IMG/VR virus record: IMGVR_UViG_3300010368_000009
Coordinates: 1-64,000 of that record
Source: a virus
Reading direction: 5' to 3' (one strand)
Length of the DNA stretch: 64,000 nt
In this document: positions 17,557 to 60,722 of the stretch, piece by piece
Position numbering within the stretch: position 1 is the first letter of the stretch
How the letters are laid out: each line of letters begins with the position of its first letter
Made by a program: the position numbers and the translations under genes
Notes under the pieces: generated by a model
What the model was told of the DNA's origin: nothing
Seen by the model: the letters and a program-made list of their open reading frames with translations, nothing else
The model's database searches: none

Positions 17557-17633
17557 GGCTGGTTAGCTTAATTGGTCAAAGTCGGAGCCTCTAAAACTCC
17601 CAGATATGGGTTCAAGTCCCATACCAGCCACCA
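17557..17633 (+). tRNA. Amber suppressor tRNA (anticodon CTA)
   Basis: GGCTGGT/ACCAGCC acceptor with ACCA; anticodon loop CTCTAAA (CTA at 17591-17593); T arm ATGGG-TTCAAGT-CCCAT; own TTGACA promoter. Confidence 0.85.
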
Positions 17634-40252: not shown

Positions 40253-40335
40253 TTAACGAGCAAATGAGTTGCAGTGGATATGGTTTGTCAAAGTATGAGT
40301 CTGATTATGATAATCCATTACATCCGGCACGTTAA
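40253..40335 (-). ncRNA. Y RNA-like unit 1 (nearest Ro60)
   Basis: 5' CGUGCCGGAUG / 3' AUUUGCUCG bulged helix; UUAUC motif. Confidence 0.75.
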
Positions 40336-40353
40336 TATTACTATATTACTAAT

Positions 40354-40499
40354 ATGGCTTTGTGAGCAAATGTATAGAAAATAGGGTTTAAGCGCTCTAC
40401 CGCTGAGCTACCAAGCCGCGAACGACCTGAGTTGGATTCGAACCAACGACCTCTCCATTACAAGTGGATAACCTATTTTCATCCGGCTCACAAAGCCAT
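40354..40499 (-). ncRNA. Y RNA-like unit 2, YrlA-type with permuted tRNA domain
   Basis: 14-bp terminal stem, GCCGGAUG, UUAUC, T arm, UUCG-capped acceptor, D arm. Confidence 0.85.
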
Positions 40500-40504
40500 T
40501 TTAG

Positions 40505-40651
40505 TAAGACGAGTAAATGAAATGACAAAGGGATAATATACAGTTGCGTCTACCAATTCCGCCACTCCCCGTTAGATTGGTCGGGGAGACAGGACTTGAA
40601 CCTGTAATACTCACTGTTCCTTAGATAACCCTAAATCTCCGACACGTCTTA
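40505..40651 (-). ncRNA. Y RNA-like unit 3, YrlA-type with Leu-like permuted tRNA domain
   Basis: GUGUCGGAG/AUUUACUC stem, UUAUC, T arm ACAGG-UUCAAGU-CCUGU, acceptor CUCCCCG/CGGGGAG, D arm GGCGGAAUUGGUAGACGC. Confidence 0.82.
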
Positions 40652-40682
40652 AATCATTTCCTTCTTTGTTCAGTCGTTAGTA

Positions 40683-40751
40683 GTTACGAGCAAATTGTTG
40701 AAAATGGGGGTTCATCAACAAAAGATAACCCACTCTCATCCGGCACGTAAC
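40683..40751 (-). ncRNA. Y RNA-like unit 4 (short)
   Basis: GUUACGUGCCGGAUG...GGGUUAUC...AUUUGCUCGUAAC. Confidence 0.78.
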
Positions 40752-40760
40752 CGCTTTAGT

Positions 40761-40828
40761 ACTGCGAGCAAATTGTTTGAAATGGGGGTTCATCGTTGCA
40801 AGATAACCCACTTCATCCGGCCCGCAGT
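40761..40828 (-). ncRNA. Y RNA-like unit 5 (short, near-duplicate of unit 4)
   Basis: ACUGCGGGCCGGAUG...GGGUUAUC...AUUUGCUCGCAGU. Confidence 0.78.
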
Positions 40829-40844
40829 CTTATTGCGATGTGGA

Positions 40845-40875
40845 TATACTTAAGGGTAATAATTCGGGGTGTCAA
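40845..40875 (-). promoter_or_regulatory. Sigma70-type promoter of the Y RNA-Ro60 operon
   Basis: TTGACA (40875-40870), 17 nt, TAAGTA on the minus strand. Confidence 0.6.
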
Positions 40876-40948
40876 ACGGTTTTATGATTTTTCTGCATTT
40901 TTCTCTTTTTTGTTGCACATGGAGTGAAACGTGCTATAAGTATTATCT

Positions 40949-41025
40949 TGCGGGTTAGAGAAGTTGGTCATCTCGTTAGACTCATAATCTGAAAACCGGT
41001 GGTTCGAGTCCACCACCCGCTCCCA
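40949..41025 (+). tRNA. tRNA-Met(CAT), initiator-like
   Basis: Loop CTCATAA; 1:72 mismatch; GAG/CTC D stem; lacks the three G-C anticodon-stem pairs. Confidence 0.8.
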
Positions 41026-41044
41026 GTTTTACGTAGGAATAATT

Positions 41045-41209
41045 ATGAACAGAAAAGTAGAATTATTCCCAACGATTCATATCACCGAAGAAACTGTAGC
41101 TGACTTGAAAGAAATATATGATTTCGATGTCACGGCACCCATTGTTATTCCATGGGGTGATGGAGACACGATTACTATAACACTGAAAGTTGTCACTGAG
41201 AATACTTGA
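41045..41209 (+). CDS. Small hypothetical protein (54 aa, not in the ORF track)
   Basis: AGGA RBS, ATG...TGA. Confidence 0.5.
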   Translation: MNRKVELFPTIHITEETVADLKEIYDFDVTAPIVIPWGDGDTITITLKVVTENT

Positions 41210-41261
41210 CATATAGTTGTAGACCTATTAGAGTGATAGCATAATCACTTAGGGAACTACT

Positions 41262-52370: not shown

Positions 52371-54539
52371 ATGAGAGTTTCACAGGTTGAACGCAAAGTT
52401 GAAATTACTGGTGCGGTTTCGCAAGAGCAATTCACTATTGCGATGAATGCCAAGATGTTCGAAATGCTTTCTAAGAAAGTGTACGAGCGTCCAGCCGAAG
52501 CAGTTCTTCGCGAAATTTGTGCAAACGCATATGACTCCAATCGTGAAGCCGGTAATGGTGATGAGCCAATTACTGTTGTGATGCCAACCCTACTGGTTCC
52601 TGTTCTTCGGGTTCGTGATAATGGTCTTGGTATGTCGCATGATTTTGTTATGCGTAACTATACCAAGTATGGTGAATCCACTAAGGATGGTTCGGACGAA
52701 TCAATTGGTGGCTTCGGTCTTGGTTGTAAATCCCCCTTTGCTGTCACCGATACATTCACCGTAATCTCACGCCACGAAGGTGTTCAACGCACCTATACCG
52801 CAGTGATCGGCACCACTGGTTTCCCAACAATCAATTGTCTGGATGAACATCCTACAGATGAACGCAATGGTGTTGAAGTCATCGTTCCTTGTTCGGATGA
52901 TATGCTTCGTAAATTCACGGAAGCCGCCCCAAAGGTTTTCGAATATTATGATGTGATGCCGACCTTCAAGAATTATGATGCTCGTCAAATTAATCAACTT
53001 CGTGAACAACTGCTTCTCGATACCGATACACTCACGATGTATAAGAACAATAATTATTATCGCGAGAGTTCGCTTCGTATTCAGATGGGTATTGTGGGTT
53101 ATCCGGTTGAACTGGGTGAAATGGATATTTCACGTGATGTTAGAGACTTCATTTCGAACCTGCGTCTTACCCTGAAGCTGCCAATCGGTTCCGTTCCGTT
53201 GGCACCATCACGCGAACGTTTGAATTATGATAATGAAACTATCAAGTTGCTGGCCGACGCGCTTAACGATGCTCGCCAAGAAATTCTTGATTATTATTTG
53301 GAGCCGGTTCACTCGATCAGTGAATATTACGAAGCTTGTTGTGCATTTATCAAGGTTCGCGAAAACCTTCCGTTTTTGCCTTCTGAGTATACTCATGGTG
53401 ATCGCACTCTGAGAACAGCGACGACATTCACCTTTAATAAGAAACGTGGATTTTCGGTTATCAAAGCTGGCCGCAGTGAATTGTATAATGGTCGTATGCC
53501 TCGTGCTACCAATGATAATCGCGTGAATATCGCGTATGATCCTAAAACCATTTTCGTTATCGATGATGTTTATCGGTGTCATGCTCGTGCAGAACGAATC
53601 GAGCGTGCCTGTCGTGATCATACGACTGTTGTTATTCTATCCAGTTCGCGTCTGAACCACGATAATCACGATACTGTTTCTCATGCATTGGATGTTGAAC
53701 TTCAAGATATCTTCCGTCAAATCGGATATCCAAATGAAGATCAATTCTGTATTCTTTCAGAAACTGAAGAGGTTGAAAAACACCGAAACAATACTGGTGG
53801 ATGGCGTACATCTGTTGGTGGCATTCGTCTCGCCACTGAACGGTTCCGTGCTAAACCAAGAGCTGTTAGTAATAATGATGGTGTATTGAGCGCCACGACT
53901 GAACCAAAGGAAGATGATGAAGGCAATCTTCTTCTTCCAGCGGATGCTCTGTACGTTAATATGTCACGTGGTAAGCCAACCATTCAAGAATCGGTTATCT
54001 ACCAGTTCGTGATGAATGATCCGCGTCCACTTTATTTTATTCCGAAAACTCTGATTAAGAAGATTCCAGAATCTTGGAAGCCTTTGGAAAGCGTTGTTGA
54101 TGGGATTGTGGACAAGGTTCGTGTTTCATCATATATTAAGTTGAAGAAGTTGTATGATAATCAGAAATTATCACATGGTGCACTTTACAAATTGATGAAT
54201 AATAAAAACACACCAACGCGTAATCGAATTCTTGCGTTCGTTGAAAAATATCCAGAGAATCAACTTTCACAACTGATTAAAATGTATCAACGCGCTCATA
54301 CTCATAAGGCCAACGCGCATATTGATGCCGTCATCACTTATAAGCATGTGCCACTGGTTAACAGTATTGAATTTCGTACCACCAAAAAGGTTAACACCTT
54401 GTTCGCCGGGTTTGAGCATGCTCATTACCTGTTGTTCCGGGCGATCACATCTTTGGGTGAAAACACTTATAGTTCGTCGCACAAGCAACAAGCATATAAA
54501 ATGATTGACAACGTATTAGACACCGTATACGGTGTCTAA
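52371..54539 (+). CDS. rIIA: rIIA protein
   Basis: GHKL-like N-terminus (REICANAYDS, RDNGLGMS, YGESTK, IGGFGLGCKSPFA); adjacent to rIIB. Confidence 0.88.
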   Translation: MRVSQVERKVEITGAVSQEQFTIAMNAKMFEMLSKKVYERPAEAVLREICANAYDSNREAGNGDEPITVVMPTLLVPVLRVRDNGLGMSHDFVMRNYTKYGESTKDGSDESIGGFGLGCKSPFAVTDTFTVISRHEGVQRTYTAVIGTTGFPTINCLDEHPTDERNGVEVIVPCSDDMLRKFTEAAPKVFEYYDVMPTFKNYDARQINQLREQLLLDTDTLTMYKNNNYYRESSLRIQMGIVGYPVELGEMDISRDVRDFISNLRLTLKLPIGSVPLAPSRERLNYDNETIKLLADALNDARQEILDYYLEPVHSISEYYEACCAFIKVRENLPFLPSEYTHGDRTLRTATTFTFNKKRGFSVIKAGRSELYNGRMPRATNDNRVNIAYDPKTIFVIDDVYRCHARAERIERACRDHTTVVILSSSRLNHDNHDTVSHALDVELQDIFRQIGYPNEDQFCILSETEEVEKHRNNTGGWRTSVGGIRLATERFRAKPRAVSNNDGVLSATTEPKEDDEGNLLLPADALYVNMSRGKPTIQESVIYQFVMNDPRPLYFIPKTLIKKIPESWKPLESVVDGIVDKVRVSSYIKLKKLYDNQKLSHGALYKLMNNKNTPTRNRILAFVEKYPENQLSQLIKMYQRAHTHKANAHIDAVITYKHVPLVNSIEFRTTKKVNTLFAGFEHAHYLLFRAITSLGENTYSSSHKQQAYKMIDNVLDTVYGV

Positions 54540-54559
54540 TATACCTTGGGAGAATAAAA

Positions 54560-55888
54560 ATGATTATGCGTCCACCTATTGTTCAATCTGGCGAAACCAT
54601 TACCGTTTATGTTGATGGCTTGCCTGAAACGATCAACCGCGACCATTCCAATTGGGAACGCGTGAAGCAAGCCATTCGTGATGAACAATGGGATCAACTG
54701 GTTCCATTGATGAACATCCCGAAAGGACTGGTTCAATATAGTGAAGGCAACATCACGATTGTTGATGATGTGTTCCTTTTCCGTGGCATTGAAGTTGCGG
54801 ATTATCTCGTCACGAAGATCATGGAAATGTTTCATGATAAGATGCCTATCCAGCCAATGGTTCGGTATTTTGAAAACCTGATGACCAATCCGAACCCGGA
54901 AGCACGCAAAGACCAATTCAAATGGTTGGAAGCTGGCAACATGCCGATCACCGATGATGGTTATGTCATCGGGTACAAGTATGTTGATGAAAACTACAAG
55001 TCTTGTCACAACGGCGTTTGGGAACTGAAGGGTGGCAAGGATTGGATTCTCAATACTGGTCGGTATTATGATCACGTTATTGGTTCCATTGTTACCATGC
55101 CACGTGAAAAGTGTGATGAAAACAGCCGCGCTACCTGTTCGACTGGTCTTCACTTCTGTTCGTTCTCGTATCTGAACTCTGGATATACGAAGTCCAAACG
55201 AATTGTTCTGGTCAAGATCAATCCGCGTGACATTGTTGCGGTTCCAGCCGATTATTCATTCGCCAAGGCTCGGTGCTGTGAATATGAAGTTATTACTGAA
55301 ATCGATGTTCAAGAACACGGTGATATTCTGGCCGGGAAGCGTGTTGTTCGTGCTTCGCAAAAGATTACCACTCTTGATGATCTGATCTTCTCGCCAACAC
55401 CGGCAGCTGTCGAAACTGATGCAGAGCGTCATGATCGTATTCTTGAAGAAGAGGAAGATGAACTTTATGAGGATCAATACAGTCTTCATGAAGATCATGT
55501 TGATTTTGATCGTGACGATGACGATGAAGACGTTGATGATGGTGAAACTGAAACCTTCTACCATGAAGCAACGGATCAACGGTTCACTGCGGCTGAAGTA
55601 TTGAACCTGTTGAGCAAATATGGTTCACAAGGTGCGGTTGCCCGTGAAACTTGTATTCCTCGATCAACGTTTGGTGGATGGTTGAACAAGATTACGGAAG
55701 ATCGCGAATCATCTTCTGAAGTTCAACTTTCGTTTTTCCACGAAGGCACCAACCAAACCTTTACGGCACAAGGGGTTCTTGACCTGCTGTCCGCTCATGG
55801 TTCACAGGGTGCAGTTGAACGCAACATCGGTATTCCTCGATCCACTCTTCGTGGATGGTTGAACCGGATAGAAGCAGCCAACGGCTAA
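54560..55888 (+). CDS. rIIB: rIIB protein with C-terminal tandem HTH repeats
   Basis: NLMTNPN, ITDDGYVIGYK, MPREKCD, TCSTGLHFC, VKINPRDIVAVP, KARCCEY. Confidence 0.9.
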   Translation: MIMRPPIVQSGETITVYVDGLPETINRDHSNWERVKQAIRDEQWDQLVPLMNIPKGLVQYSEGNITIVDDVFLFRGIEVADYLVTKIMEMFHDKMPIQPMVRYFENLMTNPNPEARKDQFKWLEAGNMPITDDGYVIGYKYVDENYKSCHNGVWELKGGKDWILNTGRYYDHVIGSIVTMPREKCDENSRATCSTGLHFCSFSYLNSGYTKSKRIVLVKINPRDIVAVPADYSFAKARCCEYEVITEIDVQEHGDILAGKRVVRASQKITTLDDLIFSPTPAAVETDAERHDRILEEEEDELYEDQYSLHEDHVDFDRDDDDEDVDDGETETFYHEATDQRFTAAEVLNLLSKYGSQGAVARETCIPRSTFGGWLNKITEDRESSSEVQLSFFHEGTNQTFTAQGVLDLLSAHGSQGAVERNIGIPRSTLRGWLNRIEAANG

Positions 55889-56350: not shown

Positions 56351-56497
56351 ATGGCAAAGCACGCATCTGGTAATACTCATGTCGTTGGTGTACGTAAGCG
56401 CACCAGCATTGGTAACTCCTTCCGTTCGGGCGACAAGTCCAAGAATGCGAAAAGCCGTAATGGTTCTCGCTTCACACGTGGTCAAGGTCGTCCGTGA
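56351..56497 (+). CDS. 48-aa basic peptide ending RGQGRP (not in the ORF track)
   Basis: Own TTGACT promoter and AAGG RBS; MAKHASGNTHVVGVRKRTSIGNSFRSGDKSKNAKSRNGSRFTRGQGRP. Confidence 0.65.
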   Translation: MAKHASGNTHVVGVRKRTSIGNSFRSGDKSKNAKSRNGSRFTRGQGRP

Positions 56498-56516: not shown

Positions 56517-56625
56517 TTGACTTTATATAGATCGCCCTGTATAGTATAAATCATCGGCGGGGAGTTACTTCCTAGTAACTCCCCGCCGAAAGAATTGAAT
56601 GCTCTTTGACATTGTTGTGTGAAGC
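56517..56625 (+). promoter_or_regulatory. Promoter followed by an rrn-like antitermination leader (boxB hairpin, boxA, GT-rich boxC-like)
   Basis: TTGACT-17-TATAGT; perfect 16-bp hairpin at 56554-56589; TGCTCTTTGACA at 56600-56611. Confidence 0.65.
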
Positions 56626-57195
56626 TTAGAACAGCTTCCGTTGGAGCATCGGGATAGATACTCCTTGTTTAACGAAAATAAACACTGTTGTGCTATTGGC
56701 ATGGTATGATGGGTTCCGGTGTTTCATCGCAAGTTGTTCTAAAAGTTTGTTGACACAGATGCATGTGTTGTATTGGTGACCATAACCGGAGTACGGGGCG
56801 GAACTTTTACTGATCATTGCGGAATGCCTAGTTTAAATGGCGTGTGTCAAAGCCGGTGTCCCGTTTAAATCTGGGGATGTGACCGGCCTCGTCATCTTAC
56901 AAAAGAGAGTCCAAACGTTTTCTAGAAACGACAAAAACTCAGCTCTGGTGGCCACAGAGAACCGGATATTCTCTTAATAGAGATAGCTTCGGGTGACGAG
57001 ATATAGTTTTCGTGTACTGACTAGAGTGCACACAAGTTCCCTTCGGGGAAGGCATCTTATGGTGTCTTAGTGAATGGACTGACAAAAGAGAATATGGGCG
57101 GTAACCTGTAGGATCACAAATCAGTCGCCTTTACCGAGGAAAATCGGTTATTGTCATTCTGTTGGCATCACCACCAGAGTGGCTTACAGTCGGGA
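56626..57195 (+). ncRNA. Large multi-domain structured ncRNA candidate
   Basis: No credible ORF; consecutive closed helical domains and a UUCG tetraloop. Confidence 0.6.
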
Positions 57196-57197
57196 AT

Positions 57198-57326
57198 TAG
57201 TTTAGAGATGGGACGTAGCTCAATATGGTAGAGCTTCTTAATCCCGGCCACTTTGGAAAACGAACTGGTCCGGTAATGTCAAACGTTGTATGCGGGTTCG
57301 ATTCCCGTCGCCTGTCATCTAAACTA
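57198..57326 (+). ncRNA. tRNA-like element with D and T arms, expanded centre, no CCA
   Basis: TAGCTCAATATGGTAGAGC; GCGGG-TTCGATT-CCCGT; closing TAGTTTAGA/TCTAAACTA. Confidence 0.6.
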
Positions 57327-57357
57327 GCTGTTTCGTCCAAATGGACAACAATAACTA

Positions 57358-57442
57358 TGCGTGCCGACTTAGACACATAGTCCGTAATACAAATGAGTGT
57401 CTGGATACGGTTGTAATGGGTTCGACTCCCGGTAGGCATGCA
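57358..57442 (+). ncRNA. T-loop RNA with possible H-type pseudoknot
   Basis: TGCGTGCC/GGCATGCA closure; AGACAC/GTGTCT crossing CCGTA/TACGG; GGG-TTCGACT-CCC. Confidence 0.45.
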
Positions 57443-57453
57443 AATGATCTTAT

Positions 57454-57575
57454 AGTCGTTGGCTGTATTATCAGAAACAACACAAGGCCGTTGAGAATCC
57501 AGCGTGTTGTTTCTGGTAGGTGTCTAGATGGATATAGCTACCATCTAAGGAGTTCAAGTCTCTTAACGACTGCCA
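57454..57575 (+). ncRNA. CCA-ended tRNA-like RNA with 8/4 acceptor-T and a long central helix
   Basis: AGTCGTTG/TAACGACT-GCCA; T loop TTCAAGT; TTATCAGAAACAACAC/GTGTTGTTTCTGGTAG helix. Confidence 0.6.
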
Positions 57576-57736
57576 ATAATATCGAGTGAAGCACTGTCAT
57601 AACATAGTTCGCGCAGAGGCTTATTATTTCGGGCTGGTATACTGATGTGGAGTAGCGTAAGCTGACACCGATTAGTAATCAGTCAGGAATATACTCGGTA
57701 TTTTGTCAAGACAAATATACCTTATGATTATGGGGT

Positions 57737-57813
57737 TGATCGATAATGCTCAGTCTGGTAGAGCTTTCTTACAAAAACTAGGAAGGTCGTTGGTTCAAAT
57801 CCAACTCGGTCGC
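57737..57813 (+). ncRNA. Pseudo-tRNA (loop CAAAAAC, no CCA)
   Basis: D arm GCTCAGTCTGGTAGAGC; T arm GTTGG-TTCAAAT-CCAAC. Confidence 0.55.
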
Positions 57814-57821
57814 ATAAATAC

Positions 57822-57992
57822 TATCTATCAGTGCACGGGGTATGTGCACGCCTATATGTGAATCGCCCGTCCATCATCTGGTTACTGAGTAACAAGTAGG
57901 TAACAAATGGAGCAACGGGGGCAGTGAAGCAAGCGTTGAAAGTCGTCGAGGTTATGTAGACGATGGTTGGTTCGAATCCAATCTGATAGATA
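57822..57992 (+). ncRNA. Structured RNA with a terminal T arm
   Basis: TATCTATCAG/CTGATAGATA closure; TTGG-TTCGAAT-CCAA. Confidence 0.5.
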
Positions 57993-58138
57993 TAATGGTG
58001 GCGTCATCTAGGAGCGGTGAAGTGTGCGTTCCGGGTGTTGCAGGCATGCAAACCTATGCGGCAGTCCTTTTCCGAGGGCGAGTCGATTCTAGTCGTTTAA
58101 CGAGCGACATGGCACCCCATCATTAAACGAGAAACATA

Positions 58139-58939
58139 ATGTTTTGGATAGTACAAGAAGATTTATATAACGAATACAATTATGATTCGTTTCTTGATTC
58201 GTTGAAAAGAATGAATATTGATCATGTATTGGTCAAGCCAATTCCATTTACCAATACACTGGTTGATGAAGATCAAATTCATATCGATGATACCAAACCG
58301 ATAATCGTATCAGGATCAATGGGATTAGTTCGTGTGGCTCGCCGTAGAGGTTGGAAGCCCGGATCATTCCTTGATGAAGATTTCGAATTCACTCAATGGC
58401 GTGATGGCTTCGGTAAAAAACATTGTATGAATGGATGGGGCAAGGTCAGTAAATTACGGGATGCATCTTTTTCCGGTAGCGATATATTCGTTCGTCCGAC
58501 AGCTGATAATAAATCTTTCAACGGAACTATTATGAACCGGGAAGAGTTTATTTGCTGGCGTGACCATTATGCGGACATCGAACCAACCGATGAATTTCAA
58601 TTACTCCATGCTGATACAGAAATTATGTTATGTCAGCCTAAAAACATTTCGGCTGAATACAGATTCTTTATCGCTGGTGGCCAAATTCTAACCGGAAGCC
58701 TGTATTCTAGAAATAGACGCGTCCTTTATCAAGAATGTGTTGATGCAGGGCCGATAGCATTCATCAATGCAATGATCGCCATATATCAACCAGCGGAAGC
58801 ATTCGTTCTAGATATAGCTTATATTCATGGTGAGTATAAAATAATTGAAGTTAATAATTTCAATTCATCTGGTTATTATGCTTGTGATGTTCAGAAAATC
58901 ATTGACGGGGTTGAACAATTAACTTACAAGTATGAATAA
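58139..58939 (+). CDS. ATP-grasp domain protein (DUF4343/R2K-like)
   Basis: FVRPTADNKSFNG, EYRFF, FVLDIA, KIIEVNNFNSSGYY. Confidence 0.82.
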   Translation: MFWIVQEDLYNEYNYDSFLDSLKRMNIDHVLVKPIPFTNTLVDEDQIHIDDTKPIIVSGSMGLVRVARRRGWKPGSFLDEDFEFTQWRDGFGKKHCMNGWGKVSKLRDASFSGSDIFVRPTADNKSFNGTIMNREEFICWRDHYADIEPTDEFQLLHADTEIMLCQPKNISAEYRFFIAGGQILTGSLYSRNRRVLYQECVDAGPIAFINAMIAIYQPAEAFVLDIAYIHGEYKIIEVNNFNSSGYYACDVQKIIDGVEQLTYKYE

Positions 58940-58950
58940 AGAGGATAACA

Positions 58951-59355
58951 TTGATGACAACAATGGTTTGGCTCGACGAAGAGAATAAAATAGCCTATAC
59001 GGATTATGACCGTAATGATAGTCGTGTCGAATCGCGTGCGCAAGATGTTCCAAGCGGAACCACACCGGGTGATAAACTTTATATTGTTTCGGTGGTTTAT
59101 GAGTGGTATGATTCTGAAAGTCGTGAAGGTCCGTATTCCAAAGTTATAGCGATGACGGTTGATGTTGTTGCTGTTGCAAAGTTGAAAATTGCTTTGAACG
59201 AATTATTGTTCGGTAGAAAACGGTATGACAATGATAAGGATCATACGGTTGAGTCTAAGATCGAATTCGAAGGCTATATGATCAATTATGGTGAATTCTT
59301 GGGATGGGGAACATCCGCAAAAGAATTAAAACTTGAAGTTTACAACGTGGTGTGA
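58951..59355 (+). CDS. Hypothetical protein
   Basis: GAGG RBS. Confidence 0.6.
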   Translation: MMTTMVWLDEENKIAYTDYDRNDSRVESRAQDVPSGTTPGDKLYIVSVVYEWYDSESREGPYSKVIAMTVDVVAVAKLKIALNELLFGRKRYDNDKDHTVESKIEFEGYMINYGEFLGWGTSAKELKLEVYNVV

Positions 59356-59657
59356 TTATGAAGCAAGAAATTTTAGATAAGTGGATTGCCAGACTTCGTG
59401 ATCCATCAGCGAAGAAGGCCCGTGGGCAACTGTGGAATAAAAGCGGCATGTGCTGCTTGGGTCATCTTGGTGATGTCTGCGGTTTGTCTAAGTCTGATAT
59501 GTCGAATGGAAACGGCGAGTCAATGCTACACCTTGATATGGCGTTTCTCCAAAAGGTTGAACTTCCGACTTCCCTATCAACGGAATTAGCTGATTTGAAT
59601 GATACAAAAGCTGGTTTCCCCATCGATGAGATAATTAAACTAGTACCGACCGATTGA
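59352..59657 (+). CDS. Phage hypothetical protein (KWIARLR...MCCLG...LND)
   Basis: 101 aa ORF. Confidence 0.6.
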   Translation: MIMKQEILDKWIARLRDPSAKKARGQLWNKSGMCCLGHLGDVCGLSKSDMSNGNGESMLHLDMAFLQKVELPTSLSTELADLNDTKAGFPIDEIIKLVPTD

Positions 59658-59665
59658 AAAATAGA

Positions 59666-60040
59666 ATTTGTACTAAACTGGACGCAGGTCCGATGAAACT
59701 GCGGCGGGAAGTAGCTACCTTAGCCGTATGGAGGATATGTACAAATACGGGTGCATTAGAGGAAGTTACTAATGCAGTAAAAAAGGAACGAAGCGTGATC
59801 CCTTGTTCCACCCACCATTATTAGTAGGCCGTCAGTCTAACCGTTTCTGAAGGTAAAAGCGAAGGTTATAAAGCATCCGCTGCCTACACGGTGGTTCTTG
59901 ATAACAGTTATCAAGAATATGATGTGCCTTATCAATGGCTCTGGGGTACATCATTAAAAACCCATTAGCTGGCCCTTTCGAGGCATGCCATAGACAAATA
60001 TCGAACGTTGTATAGTACACAGCGAAACCGCGATTGTCGG
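59666..60040 (+). ncRNA. Second cluster of structured non-coding elements
   Basis: Closed domains at 59666-59746, 59749-59817 (ends ACCA) and GTAGGC/GCCTAC; no credible ORF. Confidence 0.4.
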
Positions 60041-60043
60041 TCG

Positions 60044-60091
60044 GGGGAGAGATTGATTGGCGAATAGGTCAATAATCTCTCCCCTTTTTTT
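60044..60091 (+). terminator. Intrinsic terminator
   Basis: GGGGAGAGATT...AATCTCTCCCC followed by a T tract. Confidence 0.75.
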
Positions 60092-60722
60092 ATCTAGTTT
60101 TGAATGATACTGTGATATTGTTCGGATCAACCGGCCAATGACCGTCACTCTTGCATGAATAAGAGATATCTTCTGGCCAAGCACCGGGAATATTATCTAG
60201 TGCTTTGTTGATAAGTTCATCAGTTTGTCGTGCTGTATCACTTACAACTTTACGCTCGCCCAGTTTCTTCATGATTTCACTGAACTCGCTGCCTTTATTA
60301 AAGAGGTTTTCATTTAATGTGCGGAACCCCATTTGATTGAAATCACCACTCAATAACTCTTTTAATGTTTTGCGGTGCTTGCGCGCCATCTTCTTATCCA
60401 ACGATGATGTCACATCCATGAATCGCTGCATCTTATCATCTGGCAAATCATTGATATAATCGTAGGTGTGTTTCAGCATTTTATCAACTTTGAGATAAGG
60501 CGGAAGATCATTGAACTCTGGTCCTACATCGGCATCGGTTCTATATGTTTCTTCCATATGCTCTTCTTCGCATTCTGGATACTCGTCGGAATCGGGACAT
60601 TCGGGTGTAGCATCCACGAAGGAGTCATTATTAAATAGCGCGTTCACAATAGGACGCACTAATACTTCTGCCATGGTTTTGGCGATAGCTTCTCTTTCGT
60701 CTTCATTAAGATAAATTTGCAT
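60090..60722 (-). CDS. Hypothetical protein
   Basis: AAGG RBS, 210 aa. Confidence 0.65.
   Translation of the reverse strand: MQIYLNEDEREAIAKTMAEVLVRPIVNALFNNDSFVDATPECPDSDEYPECEEEHMEETYRTDADVGPEFNDLPPYLKVDKMLKHTYDYINDLPDDKMQRFMDVTSSLDKKMARKHRKTLKELLSGDFNQMGFRTLNENLFNKGSEFSEIMKKLGERKVVSDTARQTDELINKALDNIPGAWPEDISYSCKSDGHWPVDPNNITVSFKTR

Follow-up and report, generated by a model that had tools for sequence, protein, structure and literature searches.

A boxA identical to that of alphaproteobacterial rRNA leaders heads a predicted array of untranslated RNAs in an uncultured phage

The DNA analysed here (the window) is a 64,000-nucleotide (nt) part of the IMG/VR virus record IMGVR_UViG_3300010368_000009, which is 101 kb in length and has a CheckV completeness of ~30%. 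Between positions 56517 and 58124, its + strand carries a promoter, a perfect hairpin, a boxA of the kind found in the leaders of ribosomal RNA (rrn) operons, and some 1.5 kb of DNA in which a predicted large RNA is followed by seven smaller modules, most of them tRNA-like. An earlier note on this DNA, made from the letters alone, had interpreted these elements as an rrn-style antitermination leader in front of a long non-coding RNA operon. The central part of that interpretation, namely that a phage copy of the rrn boxA heads a long, apparently untranslated RNA of many modules, is supported by every comparative test that we ran. Coordinates of the features are collected in Table 1.

The boxA core TGCTCTTTGACA lies where the earlier note had placed it and is followed by TTGTTGTGTGA; with six further conserved bases, it forms the 18-mer TGCTCTTTGACATTGTTG. 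This is the only exact copy of TGCTCTTTGACA in the window (with up to two mismatches, 4 are found against 6 expected, i.e. chance level), and the pattern GYTCTTTRANA matches the whole 101-kb record only here. The 18-mer is identical in at least 120 bacterial genome loci, nearly all of them from Alphaproteobacteria (among the matches listed: Microvirga, Rhodobacteraceae, Sphingomonadales, Rhodospirillales, and others). Among the 120 loci listed, 52 have the 5' end of a 16S rRNA ~160-360 nt downstream of the 18-mer and 51 lie at contig ends (<400 nt), as is typical of collapsed rrn operons; 17 place the 18-mer elsewhere. Because the identity at rrn loci extends over 18 of 18 bases, the phage sequence is the boxA of the alphaproteobacterial 16S leader letter for letter, and the Alphaproteobacteria are also the presumed host clade. 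The nearest matches to the rIIA protein of the window are from phages of Rhodobacteraceae (27-33% identity). The position of the element is that of a leader boxA as well: it is on the sense strand of a 5' leader, after a promoter and before a long untranslated RNA, and this layout is repeated in a related phage and in others.

Only one clear relative was identified (locus L004), a phage of 335 kb that is complete and has terminal repeats. Its R2K-clade ATP-grasp protein is 69% identical to that of the window; given this relative, the window phage is considered a jumbo phage. The R2K protein, through which L004 was identified, returned no other relative in IMG/VR and, in metagenome contigs, only a 35%-identical one. 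No match to the region was found by blastn against 50,697 cultured phage records, and a 32-nt leader query returned only chance-level matches to cultured phages; an aquatic metagenome run contains contigs identical to the window phage. In the relative, the identical 18-mer (L004:6538-6555) follows a TTGACT...TATAAA promoter and opens ~2.8-3.5 kb of ORF-free DNA (ORF, open reading frame). When the two leaders are aligned, the 18-mer is the only shared stretch.

Twelve other IMG/VR contigs carry the 18-mer. In six of these it is located 15-30 nt past a consensus-like promoter and directly before an array of 3-24 tRNAs (a GOLLD RNA is found in two of the six arrays, and a group I intron in one); in four it precedes ORF-free stretches, and two look like chance occurrences. 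TTGAC(T/A)...TATA promoters precede the 18-mer in L004/L010, L006, L008, L009, L011, and L012. The cargo of these contigs shares nothing with that of the window apart from tRNA-like pieces. The GOLLD RNAs are at L006:1177-1643 and L014:12005-12474 (minus strand of the loci), score 188-190 bits, and each contain an embedded tRNA; the L006 and L014 arrays comprise 9 and 24 tRNAs, respectively, and each starts with a promoter and the alphaproteobacterial-type 18-mer. A comparable arrangement occurs with the gammaproteobacterial-type boxA, TGCTCTTTAACAATTTA: in several viral contigs (L163, L181/L194, L138), a promoter and boxA are followed by a tRNA at +23 to +30. In a family of large phages (L142, L144, L162, L165, L167, and L179; contigs up to 310 kb), TGCTCTTTAACAATTTA follows a TATAAT-like element and an ORF starts ~140 nt past it, so that this boxA is apparently in an mRNA leader and not before tRNAs.

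Each of four phage records searched has one copy of the 18-mer, always heading an untranslated block. These counts bear on the idea that the element is a decoy, in which a strong promoter close to consensus, together with a boxA that matches the host type exactly, would produce an abundant RNA that titrates NusB and NusE and lowers host rRNA synthesis, antitermination in the phage being incidental. A single copy per genome would make a poor sponge, however, and in every phage examined the boxA heads a long untranslated RNA, precisely where antitermination is needed; we regard a decoy as extremely improbable.

A second alternative is a nut site of the lambda type, where boxA acts with a downstream boxB hairpin and a phage N-like protein. 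There are features that fit: a 6-bp hairpin (56620-56637) begins 8 nt past the boxA core, a conserved 48-amino acid (aa) basic ORF (56351-56497) is found just upstream in both phages, and many other TGCTCTTTAACAATTTA sites in viral contigs resemble lambda-type prophage early-operon sites. However, the hairpin is absent as a conserved feature in L004, tRNAs begin as little as 23-37 nt past boxA in other phages, and the 18-nt identity is with rrn leaders rather than nut sites, all of which make this explanation very improbable. With lambda and lambdoid nut sites (boxA-spacer-boxB, N protein), the window would share a phage boxA that recruits host Nus factors. It differs in having no conserved downstream boxB, no N-like partner that we could find, and a full rrn-form boxA where the lambda variant is weaker, and in serving an RNA operon, not an early mRNA operon, in a phage that is large and of lytic type (rIIA/rIIB, many tRNAs). 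An N-like role for the small basic ORF was considered and rejected: among 80 further viral loci of its family, a tRNA is present at 0 and a boxA core at 1.

The DNA behind the leader does not appear to be translated. As the earlier note had stated, it lacks a credible ORF: the longest in 56555-58138 is at most 82 aa under translation table 11, and neither table 4 nor a reading of TAG as glutamine (the phage has a tRNA with a CTA anticodon) opens a convincing frame there. The flanking genes read well under table 11. The CTA-anticodon tRNA is an amber suppressor at 17557-17633, named tRNA-Pyl by ARAGORN. The same note had divided this stretch into back-to-back, self-closing RNA domains, which is borne out in part. 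At its boundaries, fold z-scores are -4.4 for the 570-nt stretch of the large RNA, -3.7 for module e1, -4.9 for e3, and -4.1 for e4, and only -0.8 to -2.3 for e2, e5, e6, and e7. The 570-nt stretch does not form one closed domain: its minimum free energy fold consists of a 127-nt hairpin and then a multibranch part, with outer closing pairs of probability ~0.3. No repeat arrays were found in the region, only a D-arm common to e1 and e5.

The core of the large RNA is conserved in the relative. The blocks common to both phages are TTGGTGACC, AAAGCCGGTG, GAGAG, and AAAA..CAGC-stem-GGCCAC-stem-GAACCG, in which GGCCAC is a hairpin loop. The core hairpin has a stem of CUCUG/CAGAG in one phage and CCCC/GGGG in the other, the pairing being kept. 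Rfam has no family match on 56590-57210 at E values up to 10, nor on L004:5800-9700 at E values up to 1; the search itself works, as the GOLLD RNAs of L006 and L014 were recovered at the scores given above. By these searches, the large RNA belongs to an undescribed family.

Behind the large RNA, five of the seven modules (e1, e2, e3, e5, and e6) have a T-arm followed by the 3' strand of an acceptor-like closing stem. Strict T-arms number 26 on both strands of the 101-kb record: 17 are in tRNAs, 4 are on the + strand of this 0.93-kb array, and 5 are elsewhere. The tRNA-like signature is thus clearly a non-random feature of the array. The modules are distinct from the 19 canonical tRNA genes of the record, which are located away from the boxA-led unit and encode CCA in 19/19 cases; among the T-arm modules, only e3 does so. 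Module e3 also has a 7-bp variable-arm-like hairpin and a 15-bp rod, with neither a D-arm nor an anticodon loop. Module e5 comes closest to a tRNA, with a spacing of 4 nt between acceptor and D stems and an Rfam tRNA score of 29.7 bits (cut-off 29). It is the only one of e1-e3, e5, and e6 to reach that cut-off, ARAGORN calls none of the five, and we classify e5 as a pseudo-tRNA or tRNA-like RNA. When introns were allowed, ARAGORN made no calls in the region that were consistent, at either default or relaxed settings. Decoding tRNAs among the T-arm modules were rejected on these grounds (the 9-nt loop of e5, no cloverleaf calls for the others, CCA in e3 only). In the relative, too, T-arm modules are found in the ORF-free block, all of them on the same strand; canonical tRNAs are absent from this block, and the ~41 tRNAs of that phage are scattered elsewhere. 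Because the canonical tRNAs lie outside the block, the boxA leader serves non-canonical RNAs alone in this lineage. Elsewhere in the window, a 1-kb ORF-free gap (40264-41261) around a tRNA-Met (40949-41025) has two strict minus-strand T-arms, at 40431 and 40589; positions 40423-40452 resemble the T-arm region of e5 (57785-57813), and further tRNA-like modules may exist on that opposite strand.

Table 1. Features of the boxA-led unit, in window coordinates
Feature	Position	Strand	Remarks
Sigma70-type promoter, TTGACT-17-TATAGT	56517-56545	+	10/12 match; predicted start near 56552
Hairpin, 16 perfect pairs, 4-nt loop UCCU	56554-56589	+	-31.8 kcal/mol, z -9.4
rrn-type boxA and 6 conserved bases, TGCTCTTTGACATTGTTG	56600-56617	+	Core TGCTCTTTGACA at 56600-56611
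Long irregular hairpin, first part of 570-nt RNA	56622-56748	+	Helices of 11 and 14 pairs, probability 0.96-0.99
Conserved core of large RNA	56760-56975	+	Blocks colinear with L004:7017-7240
3' part of large RNA stretch	56976-57195	+	Not conserved in relative
e1	57198-57326	+	D-arm, T-arm, ~17-bp closing stem; expanded rod in place of anticodon arm; no CCA
e2	57358-57442	+	T-arm and closing stem, one long hairpin, no D-arm; z -0.8
e3	57454-57575	+	7-bp acceptor stem, T-arm, G-CCA end; z -4.4 to -4.9
e4	57578-57702	+	Closed 125-nt fold without T-arm, z -4.1
e5	57737-57813	+	Near-canonical cloverleaf, 9-nt anticodon loop, no CCA
e6	57822-57992	+	171 nt, T-arm, 10-bp closing stem
e7	57994-58124	+	131-nt fold without canonical T-arm, z -1.9
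R2K-clade ATP-grasp gene (58139-58939) and two small ORFs	58139-59657	+	R2K start 14 nt past e7
First strong intrinsic terminator after promoter	60043-60091	+	18-pair stem and U7, -28.1 kcal/mol, z -4.5

The cargo is represented in RNA libraries, with contigs of three metatranscriptome studies aligning to it at 97-100% identity: two on the conserved core (56778-56942 and 56795-56950), two bridging the large RNA into e1 (57047-57265 and 57134-57295), two on e6 (57834-58003 and 57837-58000), and one running from e6 into e7 (57839-58108). What these contigs demonstrate is limited to the occurrence of the cargo in RNA libraries and to its physical continuity at two junctions. No contig covers the leader (56552-56625) or the flanking genes, an absence that is not evidence. 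Strain differences in the contigs at 57147, 57183, 57188, and 57195 are uninformative for structure. The contig starts at 57834-57839, in three studies, and the two stops at 56942-56950 are a weak hint of possible processing sites.

Both the RNA-library contigs and the modules bear on the possibility that the boxA is a passenger: a functionless rrn-leader fragment gained by recombination, in front of an ORF-free stretch of decaying tRNA genes and junk. The modules do resemble degenerate tRNAs (4/5 without CCA, and e5 with a 9-nt anticodon loop), the cargo turns over rapidly between the window phage and its relative, and fold z-scores in arbitrary windows are ordinary. However, the identity to bacteria and to the relative is confined to the 18-mer and does not extend into the rrn leader around it, the 18-mer recurs after promoters in unrelated phages, and an ORF-free block of 1.5-3.5 kb has been retained in densely coded genomes. 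Together with the conserved core of the large RNA and with the three studies whose RNA libraries contain the cargo, this makes a passenger quite improbable.

The unit probably extends beyond the array. We were unable to find a good terminator between the array and the R2K gene, or anywhere before 60043, and the three ORFs behind e7 are for this reason probably co-transcribed with it. The unit would then comprise the promoter, hairpin, boxA, RNA array, three ORFs, a further ORF-free stretch, and the terminator at ~60.09 kb. That further stretch is ~380 nt in length (59666-60040, + strand), between the last ORF and the terminator. Of the long non-coding RNA operon proposed in the earlier note, the untranslated, multi-module array stands; a purely non-coding unit ending at 58124 does not, as transcription likely reads through the three ORFs. 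It is on just such an untranslated leader, 1.5 kb in length and followed by translated genes, that Rho would otherwise act.

Since an exact alphaproteobacterial rrn boxA heads this RNA stretch, the phage probably borrows the antitermination machinery of its host. We consider it likely that the 5' leader of the unit carries a working host-type rrn boxA that would give Nus-based, Rho-resistant transcription, and processing, of the RNAs behind it. NusB-NusE bound to boxA nucleates the rrn antitermination complex. In the window phage, host RNA polymerase would start at the sigma70-type promoter, and the nascent RNA would fold its 5' hairpin and then expose boxA. Binding of boxA by host NusB-NusE (S10), with NusA, NusG, and SuhB, would turn the polymerase into the form known from rrn operons, which is fast, resistant to Rho, and able to chaperone RNA. 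In this form it would transcribe the 1.5 kb of structured RNA, and probably the three ORFs, to the terminator at ~60.09 kb. tRNA-processing enzymes would cut the precursor into discrete, stable RNAs via the T-arm/acceptor modules. Such cutting is probable because T-arm and acceptor parts are recognized by RNase P, 3' trimming enzymes, and CCA-adding enzymes, and the T-arm/acceptor module plausibly confers both processing and stability.

In its layout, the phage leader resembles that of bacterial rrn operons (boxB-boxA-boxC; NusB, NusE/S10, NusA, NusG, SuhB, S4). Both have boxA tens of nt past a strong promoter, and they agree in the 18 nt of boxA, the transcribed strand, the order with a hairpin upstream, and the long untranslated, structured RNA behind. 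The phage differs in its non-rRNA cargo and in a unit that probably runs on into protein genes.

Several further observations weigh against a working rrn-type leader. The 16-bp hairpin has no counterpart between promoter and boxA in L004 or in other phage leaders, and it is 10 nt away from boxA, compared with 0-3 nt for the hairpins in 43/52 distinct alphaproteobacterial rrn leaders. A boxC like the purine-rich block found soon after boxA in rrn leaders (GAAGRGA...GYGGGCGG) is lacking: the phage boxA is followed only by TTGTTG and TGTGA. Nor is there a sign of a leader-trailer helix, the best duplexes of 56590-56660 with 56700-60200 being no better than those of shuffled leaders; only a local hairpin (56607-56770) stands out in the scan of the leader for long-range pairing. 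The boxA deviates at one position (G for A) from the functional consensus of Gammaproteobacteria, GYTCTTTAANA (PMC5725501), with the same G present in the alphaproteobacterial rrn form. With respect to the cargo, arbitrary 150-nt windows have a mean z-score of -1.13 in the region and of -0.92 and -0.90 in the coding flanks; as stability in the region does not exceed that of the flanking genes, fold energy alone is no proof of structure. The stem change with pairing kept favours a structured large RNA and is suggestive only, as covariation rests on two sequences: two block-pattern searches for further members of the core returned only the known relative. Strand, ends, and level are not readable from the RNA-library contigs, and DNA contamination is possible. 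Finally, Nus binding, Rho resistance, processing, and the functions of the RNAs are what we infer.

The hairpin deserves separate consideration. Both it and the promoter are present as the earlier note had described them, and the promoter is the best + strand match within 55.5-59 kb. The label of boxB that had been given to the hairpin is weak: it does lie upstream of boxA, in the rrn order, and is neither conserved nor at the rrn distance. It is also far longer than the short hairpins at the boxB position of alphaproteobacterial rrn leaders. This length, the lack of conservation, and an end 10 nt before boxA would fit a terminator or insulator that ends the upstream unit (tRNA-Gly, tRNA-Met, and a small ORF), an explanation that concerns the hairpin alone. 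On the + strand, however, no U-tract follows the hairpin. It begins 1-2 bases past the predicted transcription start and, since the -10 element lies before it, is part of the new transcript. A terminator is therefore unlikely; the hairpin may instead be a boxB-position hairpin or a 5' stabilizer of the transcript.

With respect to the neighbouring genes, rIIA and rIIB are encoded at 52371-55888. The 48-aa, very basic ORF upstream of the unit (+ strand) is present in the relative at L004:5868-6011 (47-48 aa). The protein has the motif MAK..V(K/R)KRTSIGNS.RS...RGQGRP and no Pfam match. Its family, whose members are ~45 aa in length, comprises 32 representatives (E<1e-3) and 119 loci in IMG/VR, of which many are on contigs of 4-9 kb; an identical protein is also encoded on a 317-kb contig. 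It may be a protamine-like nucleic acid-binding protein. In the relative, four tandem paralogous ORFs (~100-123 aa; L004:3694-5001) lie between a tRNA-Met and the R2K gene, and the corresponding place in the window holds a small ORF and the RNA array instead. The RNA block of L004 is on the opposite side of the R2K gene compared with the window. Because its side differs between the two phages, the block behaves as a mobile cassette in otherwise conserved synteny.

boxA elements also function outside rRNA operons and lambdoid phages. They reportedly do so in the leaders of CRISPR (clustered regularly interspaced short palindromic repeats) arrays. A functional boxA is also found in the 5' untranslated region of suhB (PMC5725501). 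Both precede RNA that is translated poorly or not at all and counter Rho there, as is proposed for the window. They belong to cellular genes, whereas the boxA of the window is viral and matches the rrn copy of the presumed host. The large RNA is reminiscent of the GOLLD and ROOL phage RNAs in being structured, several hundred nt in length, and located beside tRNA-like genes; however, it matches neither model, and its conserved blocks were found in this lineage only. The modules can be compared with the tRNA cluster of phage T4, where small stable RNAs (species 1 and 2) are co-transcribed with tRNAs. Like these RNAs and engineered 'tRNA scaffold' RNAs, the modules are non-decoding RNAs that keep tRNA-like ends in a tRNA-type precursor. 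In contrast to the T4 cluster, they form their own boxA-led unit, with the 19 canonical tRNAs elsewhere.

We also entertain, tentatively and as a doubtful possibility, a broader reading in which this lineage uses the rRNA transcription and folding machinery of its host for an operon devoted to new functional RNAs, namely the large RNA and tRNA-scaffolded RNAs. Anticodon arms might have been replaced by other domains, and the enzymes that process tRNAs might release the individual RNAs. Their possible roles during infection would include diverting aminoacyl-tRNA synthetases or defences directed at tRNAs, as decoys, and contributing to an RNA assembly, with separate expression of the canonical phage tRNAs.

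Antitermination by boxA and Nus factors is textbook knowledge for rRNA operons and lambda. Our literature searches returned no description of phage operons for tRNAs or non-coding RNAs that begin with a host-type rrn boxA, nor did we find a host-identical rrn boxA reported as the standard head of tRNA and large-RNA operons in big lytic-type phages. The window adds an alphaproteobacterial-type case with exact 18-nt identity, a leader reserved for non-canonical RNAs, and support from RNA libraries. If the interpretation is correct, it would explain how long untranslated phage RNAs (tRNA arrays, GOLLD-like RNAs, and modules such as these) pass Rho, and boxA would be a short tag for the host clade of uncultured phages, here the Alphaproteobacteria. 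Since non-canonical RNAs are all that the leader serves in this lineage, and metatranscriptomes contain them, the RNAs of the window are promising candidates for a new phage RNA class, and ORF-free stretches behind such leaders would be places to seek others.

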